DNA from: Isurus oxyrinchus
Taxonomy: Eukaryota
Assembly: GCA_026770705.1 (NCBI GenBank)
Contig: JANJGN010000027.1
Location: 18,104,001 to 18,168,000 of the forward strand
Length of the DNA stretch: 64,000 nt
Direction of reading: 5' to 3'
In this document: in pieces, positions 3,091 to 64,000 of the stretch
Position numbering within the stretch: the first letter of the stretch is position 1
Layout of the letters: every line of letters starts with the position of its first letter
Notes under the pieces: model-generated
Database searches by the model: none
What the model was told of the DNA's origin: nothing
Seen by the model: the letters and a program-made list of their open reading frames with translations, nothing else
Translations under genes and position numbers: made by a program

Positions 3091-3119
3091 TAAGAGCTCA
3101 TGGTAGGGGGTAACATATT

Positions 3120-3620
3120 AGCATGTGGCCCCTGGCTTTAGATCTCCCCCGCCAAGCCAGTGGAAACATCCTGTCTGCATTTACCCTGGCAAGACTTGTA
3201 AGAATTTTGTACACTCCAATGAGATCACTTTTAGTTGTTCTTAACTCTAGAGAATGCAAGCTAAGTCTCCTCAATCTCTGCTCATAGGATATCCCAGGGA
3301 TCAGTCTGGTGAACCTTTGCTGCACTCCCTCTATGGCAAGGATATCCTTCCTTAGGTAAGGAGGCCAAAACTGTACACAATACTCCAAATGATGCCTCAC
3401 CAAGGCTCTATAAAACTGCAGCAAGATTTCCTTACTCCTGTACTCAAATCTTCTTGTAATAAAGGTTAACATACCATTTGCCGCCTTAATTGTTTGTTGA
3501 ATCTGCATGTTCACTTTCAGTGATTTATGAATAAGGATACCCAGGTCCCTTTGGATATTAGCACTTCCTAATCTCTCACCGTTTAAGAAATATTCTACAT
3601 TTCCATTTTCCTACCACATT
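3120..3620 (-). mobile_element. CR1 LINE RT C-terminal fragment
   Basis: ORF 3098-3514: KAANGMLTFI..FEYRSKEILLQFYRALVRHHLEYCVQFWPPYLRKDILAIEGVQQRFTRLIPG. Confidence 0.88.
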
Positions 3621-11994: not shown

Positions 11995-14039
11995 GCAGGA
12001 CTAAGCGATCCCACAACCAACGTTTCAGATGTGAGCTCTGATAGTGGACTATTAAACAACTCACTGGAGGAAGAGGCTCCACAAATATCCCTATCCTCAA
12101 TGTAGAAGCCCAGCACATTAGTGCAAAAGATAACCCTGAAGCATTTGCTACAATCTTCAGCCAGAAGTGCCAAGTGCACGATCCATCTAAGCCTCCTCCG
12201 GAGGTCCCCAGAGTTATAAATGCCAGTCTTCAGCCAATTCGATTCACTCCATGTGATTTCAAGGAACGGCTGATGGCACTGGATACTGCAAAGGCTATGG
12301 GCCCTGACAATATTCCAACAATAGTACTAAAGACTTGTGTTCCAGAACTTGCCACGCCCCTCACCAAGCTGTTCCAGTACAGCTACAACACTGGCATCTA
12401 CTTGGCTATGTGGAAAATTGCCCAGGTATGCCCTGTACACAAAAAGCAGGACAAATCCAATCCAACCAATTACCGCCCCATCAGTCTACTCTCCATCAGT
12501 AAAGTAATGGAAGGGGTCATCAACAGTGCTATCAAGCAGCACGTGCTTAGCAATAACCTGCCCGCTGAAGCCCAGTTTGGTTTCCCAGGACCACTCAGCT
12601 CCTTACCTCATTACAGCCTTGGTTCAAACATGGACAAAAGAGCTGAACTCCCGAAGTGAAGTGAGTGGCTGCCCTTGACATAAGGCAGCATTTGACTGAG
12701 TGTGCCATCAAGGAGCCCTAGCAAAACTGGAGTTAGTGGGAATCAGGGGGAATACTCTCCACTGGTTGGAGTCATATCTAGCATAAAGGAAGATGATTGT
12801 GGTTGTTGGAGGTCAGCCATCTCAGCTCCAGGACATCACTACAGGAGTTCCTCAAGTAGTGTCCTCGGCTCAACCATCTTCAGTTGTTTCATCAATGACC
12901 TTCCTTCCATTAGAGGGTCAGAAGTGGGGAAGTTTGCTACTGATTGCATGGTGTGCAGCACCATTCGTGACTCCTCACATATTGAAGCAGTCTATGTCCA
13001 AATGCAGCAAGACCTGGACAATATCCAGGCTTGGGCTGACAAGTGGCATGTAACATTTTTTGCCATGCAAATGTCAGGTAATAACCATCTTCAGCAAGAG
13101 AGAATCCAACCATCGTCCCTTGATGTTCAATGGCATTACCACTGCTGAATCCCCCCCATCAACATCCTGGGGGTTACCATTGACCAGAAATTGAACTGGA
13201 CTAGCCATATAAATGCTGTGGCTACAAAATCAGGTCAGAGGCTAGGAATAGTGCGATGAGTAACCCACCTCCTGACTCCCCAAAGCCTGTCCACCATCTA
13301 CAAGTCAGGAGTGTGATGGAATACTCCCCACTTGCCTGGATGAGTGCAGATCCCACAACATTCAAGGAGCTTGACATTGTTCAGGATAGAGCAGGCCGCT
13401 TGATTGGCACCACATCCACAAAAATTCACTCCCTCCACCACTGACGCACAGTAGCCGCAATGTGTACCATCTACAAGATGCACTGCAGGAATTCACCAAG
13501 GCTCCTTCAACAGCACCTTCCAAATTCACGCCTACCATCTAGAAGAAAAAAGGAAGAAGATGGATGGGAACACCACCACCTGGAATTTCCCCTCCAAGTC
13601 ACTCACCATCCTGACTTGGGAATATATCGCCGGTCCTTTACCATCAATGGATCAAAATCCTAGAACTCCCTTCCTAACAGCACTGTGGGTATATCTACAT
13701 CACAGCGGTTCAAGAAGGCAGCTCACCCTTCTCAAGAACAACTAGGGCTGGGCAATAAATGCTGTCCCAGCCAGCGAAGCCCACATCCCATGAATGAATA
13801 AAAAAAAATCTTGGGTTCAGGGTCTAGTTGGGGTTCCTTTAGAGTTTTACTGTTACCCTAAGAATGCTACCATAGACCATTATCCATAAAAAAAACTTTA
13901 TAGAGCTATTTACATCTCAGTACTCTACACAAGTTGTACTTCTGCTTCCTATGAGGTCTCTGTCTCTTAGTCATATGATTTTGCATCACAGTTACCTGTG
14001 ATGGTCCTGATAATCCATCAGGTGCTTATACTGTTAATC

Positions 14040-39700: not shown

Positions 39701-40347
39701 ACAAATTTTACTTTAATAGCATTGTGCAATATTGTTAATTTGACAGGACAATATCCCATTAGTTATTTATAACATTGTGCAGATGATAACACTGATTATG
39801 GTGACTGCCTCAGCCCTCATTAAAATGTTCTGTGCAATGTACCATATGGACACGGTGATAGTAAATTCATATTTGGGGCAAAGATTCAATACTTGCAACC
39901 CAGATAAACCGCGCAAGTAGAAGACTTCCTCCTGCCCGGGTGCATGATATTATTCAGTATAATTATTTCATAATAGGGTGTAATTGGATTCTATTTTATC
40001 AGTAACCTCACTGCATTGAAAGATCAAATGACTCCTGAGCACCAAAGTGGAATGATTCAACAACATAGGTCTTCACTGTAAGTGAAAAGAGTTGGGTCCC
40101 TCAAGTCTATCTGTGTGACACAACTTTTAAGAGGCCAGAAGACAAAGACTGAATGGTTCACAATTGTATCTGTGTTTTCTTGATCAAGTCTGAAGACACT
40201 GCTGCTTCTCGCGACAATATATTTTCAATATCTACTACGTAACACAACTTCAGGGTACTTCAGTCCCTCAGAAAACTCATAAAAACACCAAGATAGAGTG
40301 GGATAATAGGTAAGTAGACAAAAGGCCCCAGCTATGCCTGTCTCTTT

Positions 40348-41484
40348 ATGGGGTATGTGGAACATTCCTTGTTGCAGTCCTACTCCGGCCCCCTTCCACA
40401 ACTTTTTTTCCGGTACATCGATGATTACTTCGGTGCCGCTTCATGCTCTCGTCGGGACTTGGAAAAATTTATTAATTTTGCTTCCAATCTCCACCCCTCC
40501 ATCATTTTCACGTGGTCCATCTCTGACACTTCCCTTCCCTTCCTTGACCTCTCTGTCTCAATCTCTGGTGATAGACTGTCCACCAATATCCATTACAAAC
40601 CCACCGACTCCCACAGCTACCTCGACTACAACTCCTCACACCCCGCTTCCTGTAAGGACTCCATCCCATTCTCCCAGTTCCTTCGCCTTCGTCGCATCTG
40701 TTCCGATGATGCTACCTTCAAAAACGGTTCCTCTGACATGTCCTCCTTCTTCCTTAACCGAGGTTTTCCACCGACGGTCGTTGACAGGGCCCTCAACCGT
40801 GTCCGGCCCATCTCCCGCGCATCCGCCCTCACGCCTTCTCCTCCCTCCCAGAAACATGATAGGGTCCCCCTTGTCCTCACTTATCACCCCACCAGCCTCC
40901 GCATTCAAAGGATCATCCTCCGCCATTTCCGCCAACTCCAGCATGATGCCACCACCAAACACATCTTCCCTTCACCCCCCTTATCGGCATTCATTAGGGA
41001 TCGCTCCCTCCGGGACACCCTGGTCCACTCCTCCATCACCCCCTACTCCTCAACCCCCTCCTATGGCACCACCCCATGCCCACGCAAAAGATGTAACACC
41101 TGCCCCTTCACTTCCTCTCTCCTCACCGTCCAAGGGCCCAAACACTCCTTTCAAGTGAAGCAGCATTTCACTTGCATTTCCCCCAACTTAGTCTACTGCA
41201 TTCGTTGCTCCCAATGTGATCTCCTCTACATTGGAGAGACCAAACATAAACTGGGCGACCGCTTTGCAGAACACCTGCGGTCTGTCCACAAGAATGACCC
41301 AAACCTCCCTGTCGCTTGCCATTTTAACACTCCACCCTGCTCTCTTGCCCACATGTCTGTCCTTGGCTTACTGCATTGTTCCAGTGAAGCCCAACGCAAA
41401 CTGGAGGAACAACACCTCATCTTCCGACTAGGCACCTTACAGCCTTCCGGTCTGAATATTGAATTCAACAACTTTAGGTCGTGA
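40348..41484 (+). CDS. Penelope-like RT C-terminal half plus GIY-YIG endonuclease (N-terminally truncated, 378 aa open)
   Basis: FFRYIDDYFG, LPFLDLSV, HYKPTDSHSYLDYNSSHP..KDSIPFSQFLRLRRICS, Cys linker CPRKRCNTC, NLVYCIRCSQCDLLYIGET..RFAEH..VACHFN..PSGLN. The Met start is internal, so it is probably not expressed as an autonomous protein. Confidence 0.93.
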   Translation: MGYVEHSLLQSYSGPLPQLFFRYIDDYFGAASCSRRDLEKFINFASNLHPSIIFTWSISDTSLPFLDLSVSISGDRLSTNIHYKPTDSHSYLDYNSSHPASCKDSIPFSQFLRLRRICSDDATFKNGSSDMSSFFLNRGFPPTVVDRALNRVRPISRASALTPSPPSQKHDRVPLVLTYHPTSLRIQRIILRHFRQLQHDATTKHIFPSPPLSAFIRDRSLRDTLVHSSITPYSSTPSYGTTPCPRKRCNTCPFTSSLLTVQGPKHSFQVKQHFTCISPNLVYCIRCSQCDLLYIGETKHKLGDRFAEHLRSVHKNDPNLPVACHFNTPPCSLAHMSVLGLLHCSSEAQRKLEEQHLIFRLGTLQPSGLNIEFNNFRS

Positions 41485-46600: not shown

Positions 46601-47682
46601 TTTATAGGCCTCCTAACAGTAACCACACACTATGATGGGATATACAGGAAGCAAAAATGGGGGTTGTGAGAAAGGTACGGCAATAATCATGGATGATTTT
46701 AATTTACGTAGAGATTGGACAAATCAGATTGGCAAAGATTTCATGAAGTGTTATCAGGACAGTTTCTTAGAGCAGCGTATTTTAACACCAACCAGAGAGC
46801 AGGCTATACTAAATCTGGTAACATGCAATGCGACAGGATTAATTAATTACCTCAGAGTGAAGGTGCCCCTAGGTAGCAGTAAGTATAATGTGATTGAATT
46901 TCACATTCAGTTTGACGGAGAGAGAAGTGGATCTGAGATTAGTGTTTTAAACTTACGTAAGGGCAATTATGGGGGCATGAAGACACAATGGGCTAAAGTA
47001 AAGAACTGGAAAATTGGGTTAAGTGATAGGTCAGTAGAGATGCAGTGGCAGACATTTAAGGAGATATTTCAGATTACTCAGAAAAGATACATTCCAATGA
47101 GAAAGAAAGACTATGAGGGAAGGACACACCATTTGTGGCTGACTAAAGAAGCTAAAGATACTTTCAATTTGATACTATCAAATCTCTGCAAAGATGAGTG
47201 GCAGGTCAGAAGATTGGACAGAATATAAAGAACAGCAAAGAATGACAAAACAATTAAGGAAGGAGAAATTAGAGTATGAGAGAAAACTAGCTAGAAATAT
47301 AAAAACAAATGGTGAGAGCTTCTGCGGATATTTGAAAAGGAAAAACGTAGTGTAGTGAGTATTGGTGCTCTAGAGAGTGATGATGGGGAATTAATAACAG
47401 AAAATAAGGAAATAGCAGATGAACTGAACAGATGTTTATGGCTGTCTTCACTGTAGACGATATAGGAAGTCGTATATCCATATAACCATTGTTCTAGAAG
47501 ACTTTGTTTTCACTGGAGAGATCGTCTTATAGAAATGTAAATGCCATCATACCCAGGACACTTGAGTAGATCCGTTTGAAGTCGTTCTTGACATCTTTGG
47601 ATGAGAAATTCCAGAGAAGGCTGCGTGTCTGAATTGTATTCCACACTGGAACTTTCCAGACATGTGACAACCATCTTCAATC

Positions 47683-47776: not shown

Positions 47777-50642
47777 GCGTTAAACAACCTGTTTAGTTCT
47801 CAGAATGGGCAGCACCTATAGTTCTCGTTCTTAAACCCGACCAAAGCATCTGAATTTGTGGAGAACTGTACACTGATGGCTAATAAAGTAGCTAAGCTAG
47901 ACAGGCACCCCATTCCAAAAATTGAAGACCTGTATGCCAAGCTGGCAAGAGGGGCAATGTACACAAAGCTTGGCATGAGTCATGCTTATCAACAATTAGA
48001 GTTGGACAATGCTTCCTGGGAATTTGTCACAATTAATACCCACAAAGGGTTGGACCAATATGCATGATTGCCTTTTGGTGTCTCCTCTGCTTGTGCCATC
48101 TTTCAGAAAACAATGGAAAGCTTACTGCAGGACCCCAGGTTCTAGTCTATTTAGACAATGCATTGGTGACAGGATTCACTGAAAAAGAGCATTTGGCAAA
48201 CTTAGATTAAGTCTTAAAACATTTCTTGCAAGCTAGAATGTGTTTAAAAAAAGAAAAGTGCACGTTCCAAGTGAGGGAGGTAATCTATTTGGGTCACTAG
48301 GTAGATTCACAGGGCTTCCACCTGTTTGAGGAGAAAGTGAGAACCATAAGAGAGGCACCTATGCTAAAGAATGCCTCAGAGCTCAAATCATTCCTAGAAA
48401 TGATCAACTATTATGGGCAGTTCTTATCCAATTTGTCTACAGTGCTGCCCTCCCTGCATTCTCTACTCAAAAAGAACCAACGTTGATCTTGGGAGGTGCC
48501 CCAGAAAGAAGCGTTCATAAAGGTGAAGCAATTGTTGCACTCGTCCAATCTATTAGTGCATTATGATCAGACGAAACAATTGGTGCTGACATGTGATGCA
48601 TTTCCCTACAGAGTGGGAGCAGTGCTCATTCATCAGGCACAGAACGGCCCACAAGGTATATATCAAGAACACCCATCATAGTGGAAAAGGGATATTCGCA
48701 GATAGAAAAAGAAGGCTTGGTATCAAGAAATTTCACCAGTATGTACACTGCCATCATTTTACAGTTGTTGGTAGGATTGTTTAGTGAGGACAATGCTATA
48801 CCACCCATAGCCTCAGCAAGTATACAGCAAAGGGCTTTAATTCTGGCACATACGAATACACTTTTGTACATAGGTCTGGCAATTGAATCGCAAATGCTGA
48901 TGCCCTTAGTCAGTTGCCTTTACAAGAAAATGATGAGGATGTCCAAGTTCCACAGGAACTTATTTTACTGTTAAATTTCTTAGATTCCTTGCCGGCATGC
49001 ACTCGACAGATCAGAGACTGGACAAGTTGGAACCGAGTCCTATCTCAAGTACAAGAACAAGTGCTTCATGGTTAGAGTATGATGAAATGGGTCTGTACTT
49101 CAACAGAAGATGTGAAAAATCCAGCCAGGATGGCACCTTAATGTGGAGAGCACAAGTGATAGTACCTCCAAAGGGAAGGGAGCCACTTTTAATTGAACTA
49201 CACAGCACGCATCCAGTAATCCCCCAAATGAAGACCATAGTACCAGCTATCTATGATGACCTGGGATGAATGGCAAAATAGAGAGTTTAGTGAAGAATTG
49301 CGTGCAATGTCAACAACTGCAAAAGTCGCCATTGACAGCTCCATTGCCTCTTGGGAGTGGCGAGATAGACCCTGGGTGTGGTTGACTACATGGGACCTTT
49401 CTTTGGAACAATGTTCTTGCTCATTATTGATGCCCATTCAAAATGGCTGGACATGTGAGCTGAAGTCACGAAAGTCGACTGCTATACTTTGAGAAACTAC
49501 GTCAAAATTTTGCCATTCACGGACTACCAGAAATAGTCGTTTCTGATAATGGCACAACATTTTACGAGTGCTGAGTTTCAACAGTTTATCAGCCTCAAAG
49601 GTATCACTCATGAAAACTGCACTGTACCATCCTTCCTCAAATGGATTGGCTGAGAGGACAGTTCAAATGTTCAAGGCAGGCATGAAAAAAGCTAACTGGT
49701 GATTCCTTGGCAACCAAGCTAGTACGCTTTCTTTTTCATTATAGGACTACCCCTCATACAGCAACATGTGCCACACCTGTAGAGTTATTATTGAAACGCT
49801 GTCTCAGAACGAGATTGAGCTTAATAATGCTAAATTTAGAGTGGAAGCTGAAAAGGAGTCAGAGAAGCCAGAAAACTAGATACGATTGGCATAGTTGCGA
49901 GGGGAACTTTACTATAGGAGAGCCAGGAGACATGAAAAACTTTGGGGAAGGACCAAAATGGTTACCAGATGAAACAAGTGCAGTGACTGGATCTCTATCT
50001 TACCATGTGGAGGTGGAAGGCCAGGTCATCTGTAAACATCTGGACCATTTAAGGAGGAGAGAGACAAATCATCTAGGTATGGTTCCACCAGTGATCATGA
50101 CTGGGCCAGCATTTCCTCAACCCAGGACTGACATGTGTGATGTCCCTGTAAGAGTTGAGGATACAGAACTGCAGATGCCCATCAAATCACCTGACGTTCA
50201 AGCAACTCTGGAAAAGGAAGTTCCTGACAAAGAATCTGAAGTTGTGGAACTGCAATGTTCCACATGTAACAGGAAACCACCTGAAAGACTGAACTTGTAA
50301 ATTCCTTACCCAGTGTAAATATCATGTTGTCTTGAAAAATATGTACTTGCAAATATAATATGTATAGCTGAGTTAAAATGGGGGGTATGTAGTAATTATG
50401 GTTTTATTTAGTGTGTAATGCACCTTTTAAGAATAATACTTGTTAAGGAAGATCACATGATCTGTAGTAACCAATAGGAGAGTAGCGCAGGCTACCTCAG
50501 CAGTTAGTGCAGAGATAGAGTTGGAGTTGAAAGCACATGTGTAGTTGCTGCTGAGTACATTGTAAATACAGTTAAAGTTTCCACCCAAGAAGTGTCTGCT
50601 GATCAACTCTCATTAATAGCACAGTCAGGCCACTCTACAACA
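47777..50642 (+). mobile_element. Gypsy LTR retrotransposon 3' half (RT-RH-IN, PPT, 3' LTR), decayed
   Basis: FSEWAAPIVLV, HPIPKIEDLYAKL..SHAYQQL..TINTHKGL, VYLDN, LVLTCDAFPYRVGAVL, YSQIEKEGL, YHPSSNGLAERTVQ, FLFHYRTTPHTAT, GPKWLP. Confidence 0.92.
50388..50642 (+). repeat. 3' LTR of the Gypsy element
   Basis: Purine-rich aaaatggggggta precedes TGTAG; ends ...ctacaaCA exactly where the CR1 RT sequence resumes. Confidence 0.75.
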
Positions 50643-60492: not shown

Positions 60493-60798
60493 TACATTGA
60501 AATGGGCTATTGCATTGCTTCTATAGATGTCTCAATAATGAGATCTTGAGACTTATATATTTAAACATGAACTGTTTATTGTTAATCTTTAACTATTTAC
60601 AGAGCCCAGACTACTGTCAAGCATGGTGCTGTTACCTCCATGCAGGCTGGCTCCAGTGTGTTCATTATAGACTGTTCTGAGTCTATTATCAGGTGACTCT
60701 ATGCATCATGCTGTAGGCAGTGCTATTTTCCAGTCCCACATTAACCCTTGCTTTGCTGAGCACTTTTACATTACAATGGCATTCAGGCATATACAACA
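60493..60798 (-). repeat. 3' LTR
   Basis: Aligns along its length with 63439-63732 (aaatgggctatt, agatcttgagactt, gcatggtgctgtta, ccatgcaggctggct, ccagtcccacattaaccctt, atacaaca). Confidence 0.9.
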
Positions 60799-60811
60799 TC
60801 CCCCTTTCTTC
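60799..60811 (-). promoter_or_regulatory. Polypurine tract
   Basis: Minus strand GAAGAAAGGGGGA abuts TGTTGTA of the 3' LTR. Confidence 0.85.
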
Positions 60812-60911
60812 AGCAAAGAAAACTTTCCTTTCCAACAGAGTATAACTATTTGTAATACAATCTTTACTTGCTATCCCTGCTCTCCCATCTCAGGTCTGTG
60901 ACTTTATAAAT

Positions 60912-62464
60912 TTAGACAGCCTTGAGGCTTGACAGCTCTTCCACATCTCGGTCTGTCACGTTTTGAGGAATGGTAGTAGTACTTTGTTTCTGGTACTTGG
61001 GTATCTCCATTTGATTCTCTTTTATGCTCCTTAGAGTTGCATTTCTCTTTATTAACAAGTCATCTGCTTTTCTCAAACACTGTGGGTTTGTCCTGTTCCT
61101 TCCATACATTCTGTTCATTCCTAGAGTGAACTTGAATTTTCTTTTCCATGACGTTCTTGGTGGATGTATACATTTCACAAATGGAACCTTTATTTCCACT
61201 TGTTTCATAATTTTGGCCAAATACTTTTTTGCTGTTTTATTTTCAAATTGTTTTGTAAGCTTATGTATCTTTTAATTTGGCTCAGTGGTTCTTAGTACGT
61301 CTGAGACATCCAGTGCTCGCTGTTCTAGTTCCTTGCACTTCAGTGTTGGATTTACATTTTCCAATCTCATTTCTTTTTCTGTCTGCAACAGAATTTTGTC
61401 CTTGTGCTTTGTTTTCTTTTCACTGTTGGCCAGGTCTGTATCTGGCAAGGTCTTAACTTGTTTAAGTTCTGGAATTGTGCAATTCGTGACTTCATTGTCT
61501 GCCTGCAGTTTGGAAAGTTCCCCAGCTTTTGCTTTCAATGTCTCCTCTTTTCCATTCAACTGCTTCTGTTTCTTGTAGCTATTGGTTTCCTCCTGAAATA
61601 TAGAACATGGCTGAGTCTTTTCTGCCTACTGTTCTTCAGTTTGTTCAGAGTGATGTTAAATTAATTTCCCTTCTCTTCATAATTTTCCAGAGGAATAAAC
61701 TTTGTCCTAAGGAATTCTTGTAGCATGTGAAGTTCTGTCAACAGGTTTTCCTTTTCTTTGTGGAGCTCACTTGCTTCATCTTGTGATTTCCTGCAATCTA
61801 GCATCGTCTGCTCAAGTTTCTTCTGCTGTGCTTCAATTCTGCCATTTGAGACGATCTTCATTTCTTCATGTTGCTGAATGGTCATGCATTATTTTTGTAT
61901 TTGATCTTGAAGGACAATCATCTGTTCTTTCAACAGCTTCTTTTCTTGTTGGTCTTTTGCCAACTTTCCCTGGGCTTCTGTGCATCATTTTGTTGCTACT
62001 GATAATTCCAACGCAGTTTTTTCAAAGTAATATTCAACATCCTTATTAGTTCATGTTTTTCAATGGCTACTACTTACTGATTCTTCAAGGAGTCTTTCAG
62101 GGTCACAACTTCTTTGCATGCCTCTTTTTGCCTGGTTATACATCTGATTGCATTTTCCCAACTCCTGTTTTGATTTGCAACTGTGAAATTGAGGGTTGTT
62201 TTTCCTCCAGATACCTTTGTGTCATCTCTGAAATTTGTTTGTTCAGATCTCAAACAGCTTGGTTCATTGAAGACTTCAGTTTATCTTTTTTTTGAAAGGT
62301 ATATACTCAGCTTGAATCTTGCACTTCAGATCTTCCAGTTCAGTTCTGATGTGAGCATTTTCATGTAGATCAGTTTCATTTACTTTTTGCACATTTTGCT
62401 TCTTTTGAGTTATCTTTGAAAGCTTTTCTTCATTCACAGCCATCTGCTCACTCATCACTATCAC
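60912..62464 (-). pseudogene. Decayed coiled-coil reading frame resembling the C-terminal coiled-coil region of UACA/RAI14/ANKRD24-family proteins
   Basis: Collinear peptides KIQAEYIPFK, DLNKQISEMTQRYLEEK, CRKSQDEASELHKEKENLLTELHMLQEFLRTKFIPLENYEE, KEETLKAKAGELSKLQAD and KQSTTTI resemble, in the same order, human UACA segments as I recall them (EMKNHYVPLK, DLNRKLLDVTQKYTEKK, YRKGQEEIVTLHAEIKAQKKELDTIQECIKVKYAPIVSFEE, KEEESQNKMEEVSKLQSE, DKSLTTI). Several stops and frameshifts. Confidence 0.72.
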
Positions 62465-63420
62465 CTGTCCTCACTCTGGAATCTTTTGTTGCCCTCCCTC
62501 TGGGGTCATTTGTTGCCCTCGGTGCTTTACTGGGAGTTGTCCTCTGGGGTTTCTTGTTGCTGCCCATGACCATTTGTTTTATCTTGGCGTTATAGCTTTA
62601 AATTTAAGACTGTTAGTGAGATAATTGTTCTTTTCACTTGGGCTGTCTGCAGTTGTCAGCTTTCTGTGCTGTTAGTTTCCTGTGCTTTTTTGTGTTTTAG
62701 TGGGTTCTCCAGTGATGTCACCCCTGTTTTTGAACTTCTAAACTCTCAAGGTAGGAGTATTGCTTTTCTCTGTAATTATTTCTTTTTTTCCTTCTCTGGA
62801 GTATCGGTGGGCTCATGGTCTGATTAGGGCCCCCTTTTCTTAAACTTAAAGTGACAACACTTTTCTCCTTTGCACTGCCTGCACTGTTTTTTTTTCAGGT
62901 AACTTTCTTTATTTTTCTCAGCGGATTCTTCTTTACTCTTGTTTCTTCTTAAACTTTTGACTCTGCCAGCCGCTTTTGTTTTTAACTTCAGGTGCAGCGG
63001 CCACCACTGTTACAATCAGCTGAGTCCTGGGACTGCCACCTATTTTATAATGTAAGTATAGTTTCCTTATAATTTTTGCTCACCGTCTCATGAACAGGTT
63101 CCTTAATTCTGCATCACTCAGGATCTTACAATTTTTGTACTTTTGCTCACTCTCCTCTGTGATCTGACTAGGTTTTTTTTCCCCTTTTTACTCTGCATCA
63201 CTTGGGGGTCTTACAATAAACTTTCACTCAATCTGGTGAATTTCTCACCTTCTAAGGCTGTAGCCAAGCTTCTGCATTTGTTTCTTCAAGTTTTTTTCTT
63301 AGATGCGTGTCTTTCTAGTTCAGCTTCAGCTGCTTTTCTAGTGTTTCATACCTTGGGATACCCTTCCATTTAAAATGCTGCTGCCTTTCTGATCACACTG
63401 TTGTGATATCTTTTAGGAGC

Positions 63421-63438
63421 TACCACCACTGCCAACCA
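63421..63438 (-). promoter_or_regulatory. Primer-binding site, tRNA-Leu type
   Basis: Minus strand ..TACAACA|TGGTTGGCAGTGGTGGTA versus the expected TGGTGGCAGCGGTGGGA (one extra T, two substitutions). Confidence 0.75.
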
Positions 63439-63732
63439 TGTTGTAAAATGGGCTATTCAGCTGTCTCAATGATAAGATCTTGAGACTTGTATATTTAAAC
63501 ATAAACCTTTTATCGTTAATCTTCAACTATTGACAGATCCTGGGTTACTGTCATGCATGGTGCTGTTAAGTCCATGCAGGCTGGCTGCAGAGTGTTCTTT
63601 CTAGACTGTTCTGAGTCAATTACCATGTAACTCTGTGCATCATACCGTGGGTGGTGCTATTCTCCAGTCCCACATTAACCCTTTCTCTGTTGAGCATCTT
63701 TACGTTACAATAGCATGTAGGCACATACAACA
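63439..63732 (-). repeat. 5' LTR
   Basis: Perfect 7-bp terminal inverted repeat TGTTGTA...TACAACA; direct repeat of 60493-60798. Confidence 0.9.
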
Positions 63733-64000
63733 TCATACAACACTTATGTAGTTGTGACAGAAGTGGTGGGTAGTATATTCCACCATTTTCTACTGACTAA
63801 GCTAGCAATGGGATAACTGCACCTGGGAGGAGACAAATGAGGAAGGGAAAGGCTGAGGAAAGGAATGGAGAGGGTAAGCAGGAGAGGATAAGTGTGGCTC
63901 AGTGGGTAGTACTCTTGCCTCTGAGAAAGGGAAGGGAGAGGAAGAGAGAAGTGATGGTGAAAAGGCAAAAGAGGGAGGAAGAGGAGGGCGGATCAGGTGG

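Follow-up and report, generated by a model that had tools for sequence, protein, structure and literature searches.

We analysed 64,000 nucleotides of the Isurus oxyrinchus genome (assembly GCA_026770705.1, contig JANJGN010000027.1, positions 18,104,001 to 18,168,000; below, the window, which lies on the sequence labelled C27) and found that a minus-strand element at 60495..63742 (below, the studied copy) contains parts of at least two host genes, UACA and TPR, joined into a chimera between long terminal repeats (LTRs). We consider it probable that this is a decayed, non-autonomous copy of a Ty3/Gypsy-derived LTR element, whose interior was replaced by UACA and TPR pieces, presumably through template switching, and which was copied in trans. 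Comparison of its relatives suggests that, as the family spread, the pieces probably remained joined in a single coiled-coil reading frame that was translated. An earlier note, made from the letters of the window, had proposed that one host gene of the UACA family had been captured in place of gag-pol; the capture of UACA holds, but there is a second donor, TPR, and gag and integrase remnants flank the cargo.

Pieces of UACA and TPR lie between two LTRs

As the earlier note had it, the element is an LTR element in minus orientation: it has two direct repeats (63734-63446 and 60800-60500, minus strand), which agree in 245 of 289 columns (85% alike; Kimura two-parameter distance 0.17), with a primer-binding site right after the 5′ LTR and a purine tract right before the 3′ LTR. 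The repeats are indeed about 300 bp long, but the 5′ LTR starts 10 bp further out than had been claimed, at 63742, and the end of the 3′ LTR lacks TACAACA. No target-site duplication could be read at the studied copy. The primer site is putatively of the tRNA-Leu type, as had been claimed; no tRNA gene was found in the window.

The first donor is UACA, whose host gene lies on C25. Its large exon is open over 908 codons and agrees with Carcharodon UACA at 306 of the 312 residues compared. The studied copy matches this exon in three collinear blocks (62426-61461, about 1.0 kb, 76-79% DNA identity), all within the one exon, and the natural 305-codon open frame of a related copy, L016, returned five protein matches, every one a UACA; four come from sharks, with identities of 60-65% (E 1e-56 to 1e-62). 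The proposed order of the UACA-type coiled coil is thereby upheld, as is the absence of ankyrin repeats, the host-exon matches holding no part of the ankyrin region; its extent had been overestimated at 1.55 kb in at least five blocks, and the remainder includes a segment of about 170 bp (61460-61290) that we call module F, TPR (61285-61170) and the integrase remnant described below. In other subfamilies, different parts of one 1.56-kb stretch of this exon are present. A paralogous exon on C12 did not match the cargo.

TPR was recognized in a sister subfamily with a more distant LTR and a longer coiled-coil tail. This tail is multicopy (2,208 candidates, of which 150 were scored), and three of six proteins scanned from it passed the Pfam cut-off for PF25481, Nucleoprot-TPR (best E 7e-18). 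The host TPR gene lies on C16, and all 30 loci fetched match at least two of its exons. The copies contain six clean exon-exon joins at which introns of 0.75-8.5 kb are skipped; TPR was therefore captured from spliced mRNA. Whether the cargo crosses exon junctions, as the earlier note had asked, thus has a divided answer: the longer relatives cross them in TPR, but the UACA cargo lies within one exon, so an mRNA origin cannot be read from it. Of TPR the studied copy holds no more than two short pieces, TPR having shrunk to about 115 nt in its subfamily; piece 1 is matched by 22 and piece 2 by 37 of 40 family copies, and several other subfamilies retain about 250 codons of N-terminal TPR in frame. 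Among 112 copies examined, UACA was present in 107, TPR in 87 and both in 83. Four loci (L141, L152, L159 and L160) have spliced TPR exons and no UACA within the 3.3 kb fetched, and L160 extends back to the apparent first coding exon of TPR; such loci may represent an ancestral state with TPR alone, or they may have arisen as processed pseudogenes.

Module F, which stands between UACA and TPR, is also multicopy. It had no convincing match in the fetched UACA and TPR loci, and no host exon appeared among 150 scored rows; it possibly derives from a third host gene.

A large, old and decayed family

A search of the 4.98-Gb genome with the interior DNA gave 4,387 first-look candidates, which are not copy numbers. 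All 40 that were scored matched, those other than the studied copy at 72-79% identity, and about 8 kb was fetched around each of 39 further copies to give a 40-copy set. LTRs with TG...CA ends, the primer site and the purine tract recur in the relatives, and 27 of the 40 copies have both LTRs, which bears out the expectation of many copies with an LTR-cargo-LTR structure. Of the 16 copies with both ends located, nine are flanked by a 5-bp target duplication, allowing one mismatch, and two of the other seven belong to tandem arrangements in which a primer site comes after the 3′ LTR. In L053, L076 and L078 a primer site follows the 3′ LTR, giving tandem LTR-interior-LTR-interior units.

The distance between the two LTRs of a copy has a median of 0.20 (range 0.12-0.28, n=24 pairs, leaving out three pairs with truncated or badly delimited LTRs). 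Because the tree of copies is star-like with end branches of 0.14, it points to an old burst of copying followed by decay. There are many subfamilies, each with its own deletions, and decay after insertion was neutral. The studied copy is broken by many stops and frameshifts, dead as had been claimed, and none of the 40 copies scored, out of 4,387 candidates, is free of them; a domesticated retrogene was rejected on this count. The longest open frame among the rows of the TPR-tail and module F searches has 437 codons. Three near-identical pairs (L088/L092; C2:41132718/C241; C129/C215) are likely segmental or assembly duplicates; L092 was left out from the join analysis onward, although it is counted among the 33 copies of the gag-to-UACA phase count given below.

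Some copies are rearranged. In L075, L115, L138, L149, L156 and L163 modules are reordered or duplicated, with TPR or late UACA upstream of UACA piece A, and this shuffled order suggests repeated recombination between subfamilies. In L062 the unit of LTR end and primer site is itself tandemly repeated, and L212 and L213 have long arrays of a short unit after the primer site.

The cargo replaced the middle of a Ty3/Gypsy element

Upstream of the cargo, 18 of the 40 copies carry a Gag N-terminal piece of about 90 codons. A profile of 19 such pieces matched 39 proteins (E 1e-7 to 8e-4), mostly near their N-termini; of 12 that were scanned, seven have gag, protease, reverse transcriptase (RT) or integrase domains and one further protein has a PNMA domain. 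One match is named K02A2.6-like and one is a polyprotein with RT, RNase H and integrase. Among 19 new loci found through the Gag piece, 18 also contain UACA. The studied copy has the start codon at 62567 and a few gag codons left, owing to a deletion common to a group of copies. Searches for homologues with the Gag piece or the tail as single sequences gave no match.

A pattern search for the primer site found 22 places, 12 of which were extended. One of these, L219, shares the primer site and the tail of the family and, between LTRs related to those of the family, holds decayed remnants of gag (E 5e-14), RT, RNase H and integrase; it is the one locus in which the pol order RT-RNase H-integrase was seen. 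The search for an autonomous-type element sharing the LTR and primer site, which the earlier note had suggested, thus yielded a relative. Positions 61077-60844 of the window align to the integrase end and 3′ untranslated region of L219 (score 115; best of 200 shuffles, 63), so the claim that the interior has no pol motifs fails. Given the Gag piece upstream and this alignment downstream, the family is a Ty3/Gypsy derivative that kept both ends of gag-pol and had its middle replaced by the cargo. The C-terminal motif of the integrase remnant resembles one in P0041; 12 Gypsy pol loci found with P0041 were rejected as relatives, having no LTR in common with the family. Membership of the endogenous retroviruses (ERVs) was rejected as well: the Gag piece and L219 are Ty3/Gypsy-like, and no env-like frame was seen in the interior of the studied copy. 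L216, L218 and L221 share the primer site and have a longer gag and a protease-like region with no RT match; they appear to be other deleted derivatives of the same Gypsy group.

The capture predates most mackerel-shark UACA changes

Among 20 columns with a lamniform-specific UACA residue, 17 show the older state in the family and two the lamniform one. Because of this excess of older states, UACA must have been captured before, or early on, the lamniform branch, and ahead of most mackerel-shark-specific UACA changes. The lamniform-carcharhiniform split is bounded at 166-208 million years ago in a calibration prior (PMC9763247, in the part available to us). Given this bound and the older UACA states, the capture probably took place in the Jurassic or earlier. 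It could also be dated by the occurrence of the family in other orders.

Deletions and substitutions suggest a probably retained reading frame

We asked of each common non-splice join whether it keeps the frame. The 102-nt deletion that joins UACA pieces A and B is in frame in 77 of 93 copies and the 450-nt deletion that joins B and C in 60 of 70; other common joins are in frame in 8 of 10, 19 of 23, 30 of 34 and 10 of 14 copies, and in 2 of 2 in several small classes. Joins found in single copies, 54 in all, fall into the three phases at 18:19:17. Across module F the phases are 22:18:12 overall, and two indel-free length classes, 30 nt apart, are in frame in 6 of 6 and 4 of 4 copies. The common gag deletion, read by eye, is locally in frame in 17 of 18 copies, the studied copy being the exception, and one further copy has three other UACA joins, all in frame.

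Substitutions point the same way. Among 312 UACA codon columns a stop is the commonest codon in two, both with the pattern of CpG decay, against about 4-7 fixed stops expected (P 0.001-0.013), and no small frameshift is fixed over about 1 kb; single copies average 5.2 stops and 3.5 frameshifts. Compared with 1,632 private residue changes in UACA, the 46 fixed ones are more conservative (p 0.008) and disturb the helix less (p 0.002), and none of the 46 introduces proline. On balance we find it probable that the source elements were under selection for an open reading frame; the target of selection is likely to have been an open, helix-forming frame rather than exact residues.

The strongest alternative is that the cargo was a passenger: A-rich coiled-coil codons resemble the element's own RNA, in-frame joins are a by-product of microhomology, and there was neither selection nor a useful protein. 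Exact runs of 6-9 nt do occur at three deletion joins inside UACA, and microhomologies of this length within UACA are in frame in 57-80% of cases by composition alone; we therefore replaced a null of one in three by a microhomology null, under which ten in-frame joins have P of about 0.006-0.03 rather than 1e-5. (Deletion lengths from a loose pairwise alignment proved unreliable and gave way to the join count above.) The interior is 42% A, ratios of synonymous to non-synonymous change are near neutral, and TPR, which has no constraint signal, has shrunk to its two short pieces in the subfamily of the studied copy. A passenger does not readily account for zero true fixed stops, for the absence of a fixed small frameshift in a family whose single copies average several, or for the helix-sparing nature of the fixed UACA changes, and we judge this alternative unlikely.

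A number of results nevertheless weigh against retention of the frame. A first dN/dS (ratio of non-synonymous to synonymous rates) of 0.54 among copies was rejected as an artefact of transition bias; corrected, it is 0.85-0.97, with wrong-frame controls of 0.91 and 1.06, so that the dN/dS below 1 looked for by the earlier note is not seen. Two subfamilies differ by 7 synonymous and 17 non-synonymous changes; over five groups the counts are 19 synonymous, 30 non-synonymous and one stop in UACA, and 4 to 14 in TPR. In the Gag piece, subfamilies A and B differ by 1 synonymous and 15 non-synonymous changes in 51 columns, which may hint at diversifying change or different helpers. TPR has no conservative-change signal (p 0.63 and 0.87), and a stop is commonest in 4 of its 209 columns, three of which look CpG-decayed and one not clearly so.

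The ends of the frame are likewise loosely tied. The gag-to-UACA phase is in frame in 17 of 33 copies (p 0.02), a weak measure over the repeat linker; from the start codon to UACA in gag-deleted copies the phases are 8:8:8, and from TPR to the pol stop 22:14:17, again weak over an A-rich tail. Two small join classes, of two and three copies, are out of frame; the gag join of the sister subfamily is evenly split; and over their full length the truncated-gag classes tend to be out of frame (8:6:2 and 3:1). Most family-A copies share a stop, not of the CpG type, at one column of the tail, so that in the subfamily of the studied copy the frame may have closed some 100 nt short of the pol stop. The Gag piece is found in just 18 of the 40 copies, no intact copy was seen among those examined, and L219 is an example of the helper type, a relative rather than a proven helper. 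The earlier suggestion that the family spread a truncated coiled-coil protein thus keeps the indirect support of in-frame joins, stop deficit and helix-sparing changes, but not that of dN/dS.

A model for capture and spread

We propose that UACA and TPR pieces would have been acquired by template switching in helper particles onto co-packaged mRNAs of the two genes, in keeping with the template-switching model for LTR-mediated capture (PMC5131818, as far as the text available to us goes). A-rich coiled-coil mRNAs would be easy switching partners for the A-rich element RNA, and copying in trans would presumably have been carried out by a related gag-pol element. In the source element, translation would begin at the gag start codon, pass through UACA, module F and TPR in a single frame and continue towards the pol stop codon, yielding a long helical rod. 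The most likely benefit would act in cis, with translation nearly to the 3′ LTR keeping the element RNA stable and packageable by helper particles. For Ty1, the accessible text of PMC3945221 describes translating and packaged RNA as drawn from one pool, and Ty1 proteins as having no cis-preference. These data make a benefit to RNA stability or packaging plausible.

It is also conceivable that the fused protein acted on the host, its TPR coiled coil pairing with nuclear-basket TPR and loosening the retention of unspliced RNA, or that Gag plus rod acted on helper particles. According to the part of PMC3258255 available to us, TPR knockdown in mammalian cells raises the export of unspliced Gag/Pol RNA carrying a constitutive transport element; this finding, the in-frame N-terminal TPR of several subfamilies and the four loci with TPR and no UACA in the fetched stretch speak for such an action. 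Residue-level constraint on TPR is absent, however, and the subfamily of the studied copy spread despite losing nearly all of TPR, and often the Gag piece too; because most of TPR is lost there, interference with TPR is a weakened reading, and we regard an action on host or helper as very unlikely. A fuller version, in which a Jurassic-age shark retrotransposon would have built a new protein from Gag N-terminus, UACA rod, third module, TPR N-terminus and integrase tail, reshuffled in frame, with its TPR part loosening the hold of the basket on unspliced element RNA, so that a host factor would be used against its own host, strikes us as quite unlikely.

It is hardly credible that the interior belongs to a local gene as one of its exons, or that it goes back to processed pseudogenes inside separate LTR elements, for beyond similarity to host coding sequence nothing favours this. 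It is refuted by breakpoints that dozens of copies share, dispersed as they are and set between LTRs with target duplications, by host genes that lie on C25 and C16 and not with the studied copy on C27, and by the many stops and frameshifts of the studied copy.

Relation to known gene captures

Gene capture by LTR elements is already known. One of the nearest likenesses to the shark family is maize Bs1, which, in the parts of PMC5131818 and PMC13317346 available to us, combines partial exonic pieces of several host genes in a hybrid frame, with copies that share switch points and arose by secondary retroposition. Bs1 is described there as present in 1-5 copies, and of its three pieces one is said to be out of frame. 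The shark family differs in its thousands of first-look candidates and its many subfamilies with their own in-frame deletions, in identified donors that are all coiled-coil genes, in retained gag and integrase ends and in a vertebrate host. If the frame was kept, the family would parallel the Bs1 chimera in an animal, with a copy number far above that of Bs1.

LTR-mediated retrocopies in animals (Tan et al. 2016, PMC5131818) are likewise partial mRNA copies between LTR remnants; they have microsimilarity at the joins, and in zebrafish and chicken they include multi-gene chimeras, often in frame and able to act non-autonomously. The available part of that survey gives few young ones per species (5/7 in zebrafish, 4/10 in chicken), and sharks lay outside it; the shark chimera is a large, diversified and old family. 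Crocodilian ERVs with KIT-ligand or nectin3 (PMC4299795) are also ancient LTR elements of non-mammalian vertebrates that took up host mRNA, and they kept its frame; as described in the accessible text, they are retroviral, each carries one complete gene, either added as a further frame or put in place of env, and they are under clear purifying selection. In the shark family, by contrast, which is Ty3/Gypsy, fragments of two or three genes replace gag-pol and dN/dS is near 1. Defective transducing retroviruses make helper-dependent gag-onc fusions, and TPR-kinase fusions use the N-terminal coiled coil of TPR as a module. The shark family resembles these in a Gag start presumably fused in frame to host sequence, in its probable dependence on a helper and in its use of the same TPR module, and differs from them in having no env, no catalytic host domain and no sign of infection or tumour function.

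Our literature search, to which Repbase, Dfam and subscription journals were out of reach, found no account of UACA or TPR inside an LTR element; an unannotated consensus of the family may exist in a repeat library. As far as this search shows, what is new is that UACA and TPR served as donors, that the host is a cartilaginous fish, that the family is so large, and that the cargo was repeatedly reshuffled in frame between retained gag and pol ends. LTR-mediated capture is known mainly from single or low-copy cases, and here a multi-gene chimera grew into a large family, whose many independent deletions amount to an experiment of nature on which parts a non-autonomous element needs. Whether helper-dependent LTR RNAs are selected for an open frame, whatever its residues, becomes a testable question, as does the reason for the choice of donors: both that were identified encode long coiled coils, and one acts as a gatekeeper for unspliced RNA. 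Shark genomes likely contain thousands of UACA- and TPR-like fragments able to mislead gene annotation.

Features of the studied copy and of the window

The interior of the studied copy is accounted for by leader, cargo and tail (Table 1), and RT, RNase H and integrase core are absent from it.

Table 1. Features of the studied copy, in window coordinates and in the 5′ to 3′ order of the element.
Feature	Position	Strand	Remarks
5′ LTR	63439..63742	-	Opens with a doubled 10-bp unit; ends ...TACAACA
Primer-binding site	63423..63438	-	From sequence; same site in relatives and in gag-pol relative L219
Purine-rich leader	62568..63422	-	Differs from copy to copy; lacks a long open frame
gag start codon and first few codons	62545..62567	-	Rest of the ~90-codon Gag N-terminal piece deleted
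Linker of 24-bp tandem units	62429..62560	-	Unit number varies across the family
UACA large-exon piece A	62204..62426	-	Host G000:C25:4882052-4882275; 78.6% identity, E 3e-48
UACA piece B	61565..62208	-	Host 4882373-4883031; 75.6% identity, E 6e-127
UACA piece C	61461..61567	-	Host 4883494-4883600; 79.4% identity
Module F, coiled-coil-like	61290..61460	-	Multicopy; no convincing UACA or TPR match
TPR exon piece 1	61239..61285	-	Host G000:C16:74270209-74270255; score 48.5, best of 200 shuffles 40.5
TPR exon piece 2	61170..61244	-	Host 74271130-74271204; score 87, best of 200 shuffles 46.5
Integrase C-terminal remnant	60904..61169	-	Stop at its end retained in 49/55 copies; alignment to L219
Polypurine tract	60799..60811	-	Directly before the 3′ LTR
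3′ LTR	60495 (about)..60798	-	Outer end decayed, without TACAACA

A Pfam scan of the window's short frames gave nothing above cut-off, PDB sequence searches gave no match, and the ESM Atlas was uninformative or returned generic coiled coils only. The sequencing runs listed as sharing the element's sequence words include no RNA run; in runs of a second organism, 0.30-0.41 of these words are present. Elsewhere in the window, a plus-strand open frame of 388 codons at 40318-41484 resembles the RT end and GIY-YIG nuclease of a Penelope-like element, and the frames at 3098-3610, 12045-12659, 46623-47228 and 49686-50300 resemble pieces of CR1/L2 long interspersed nuclear elements and a Gypsy integrase end.

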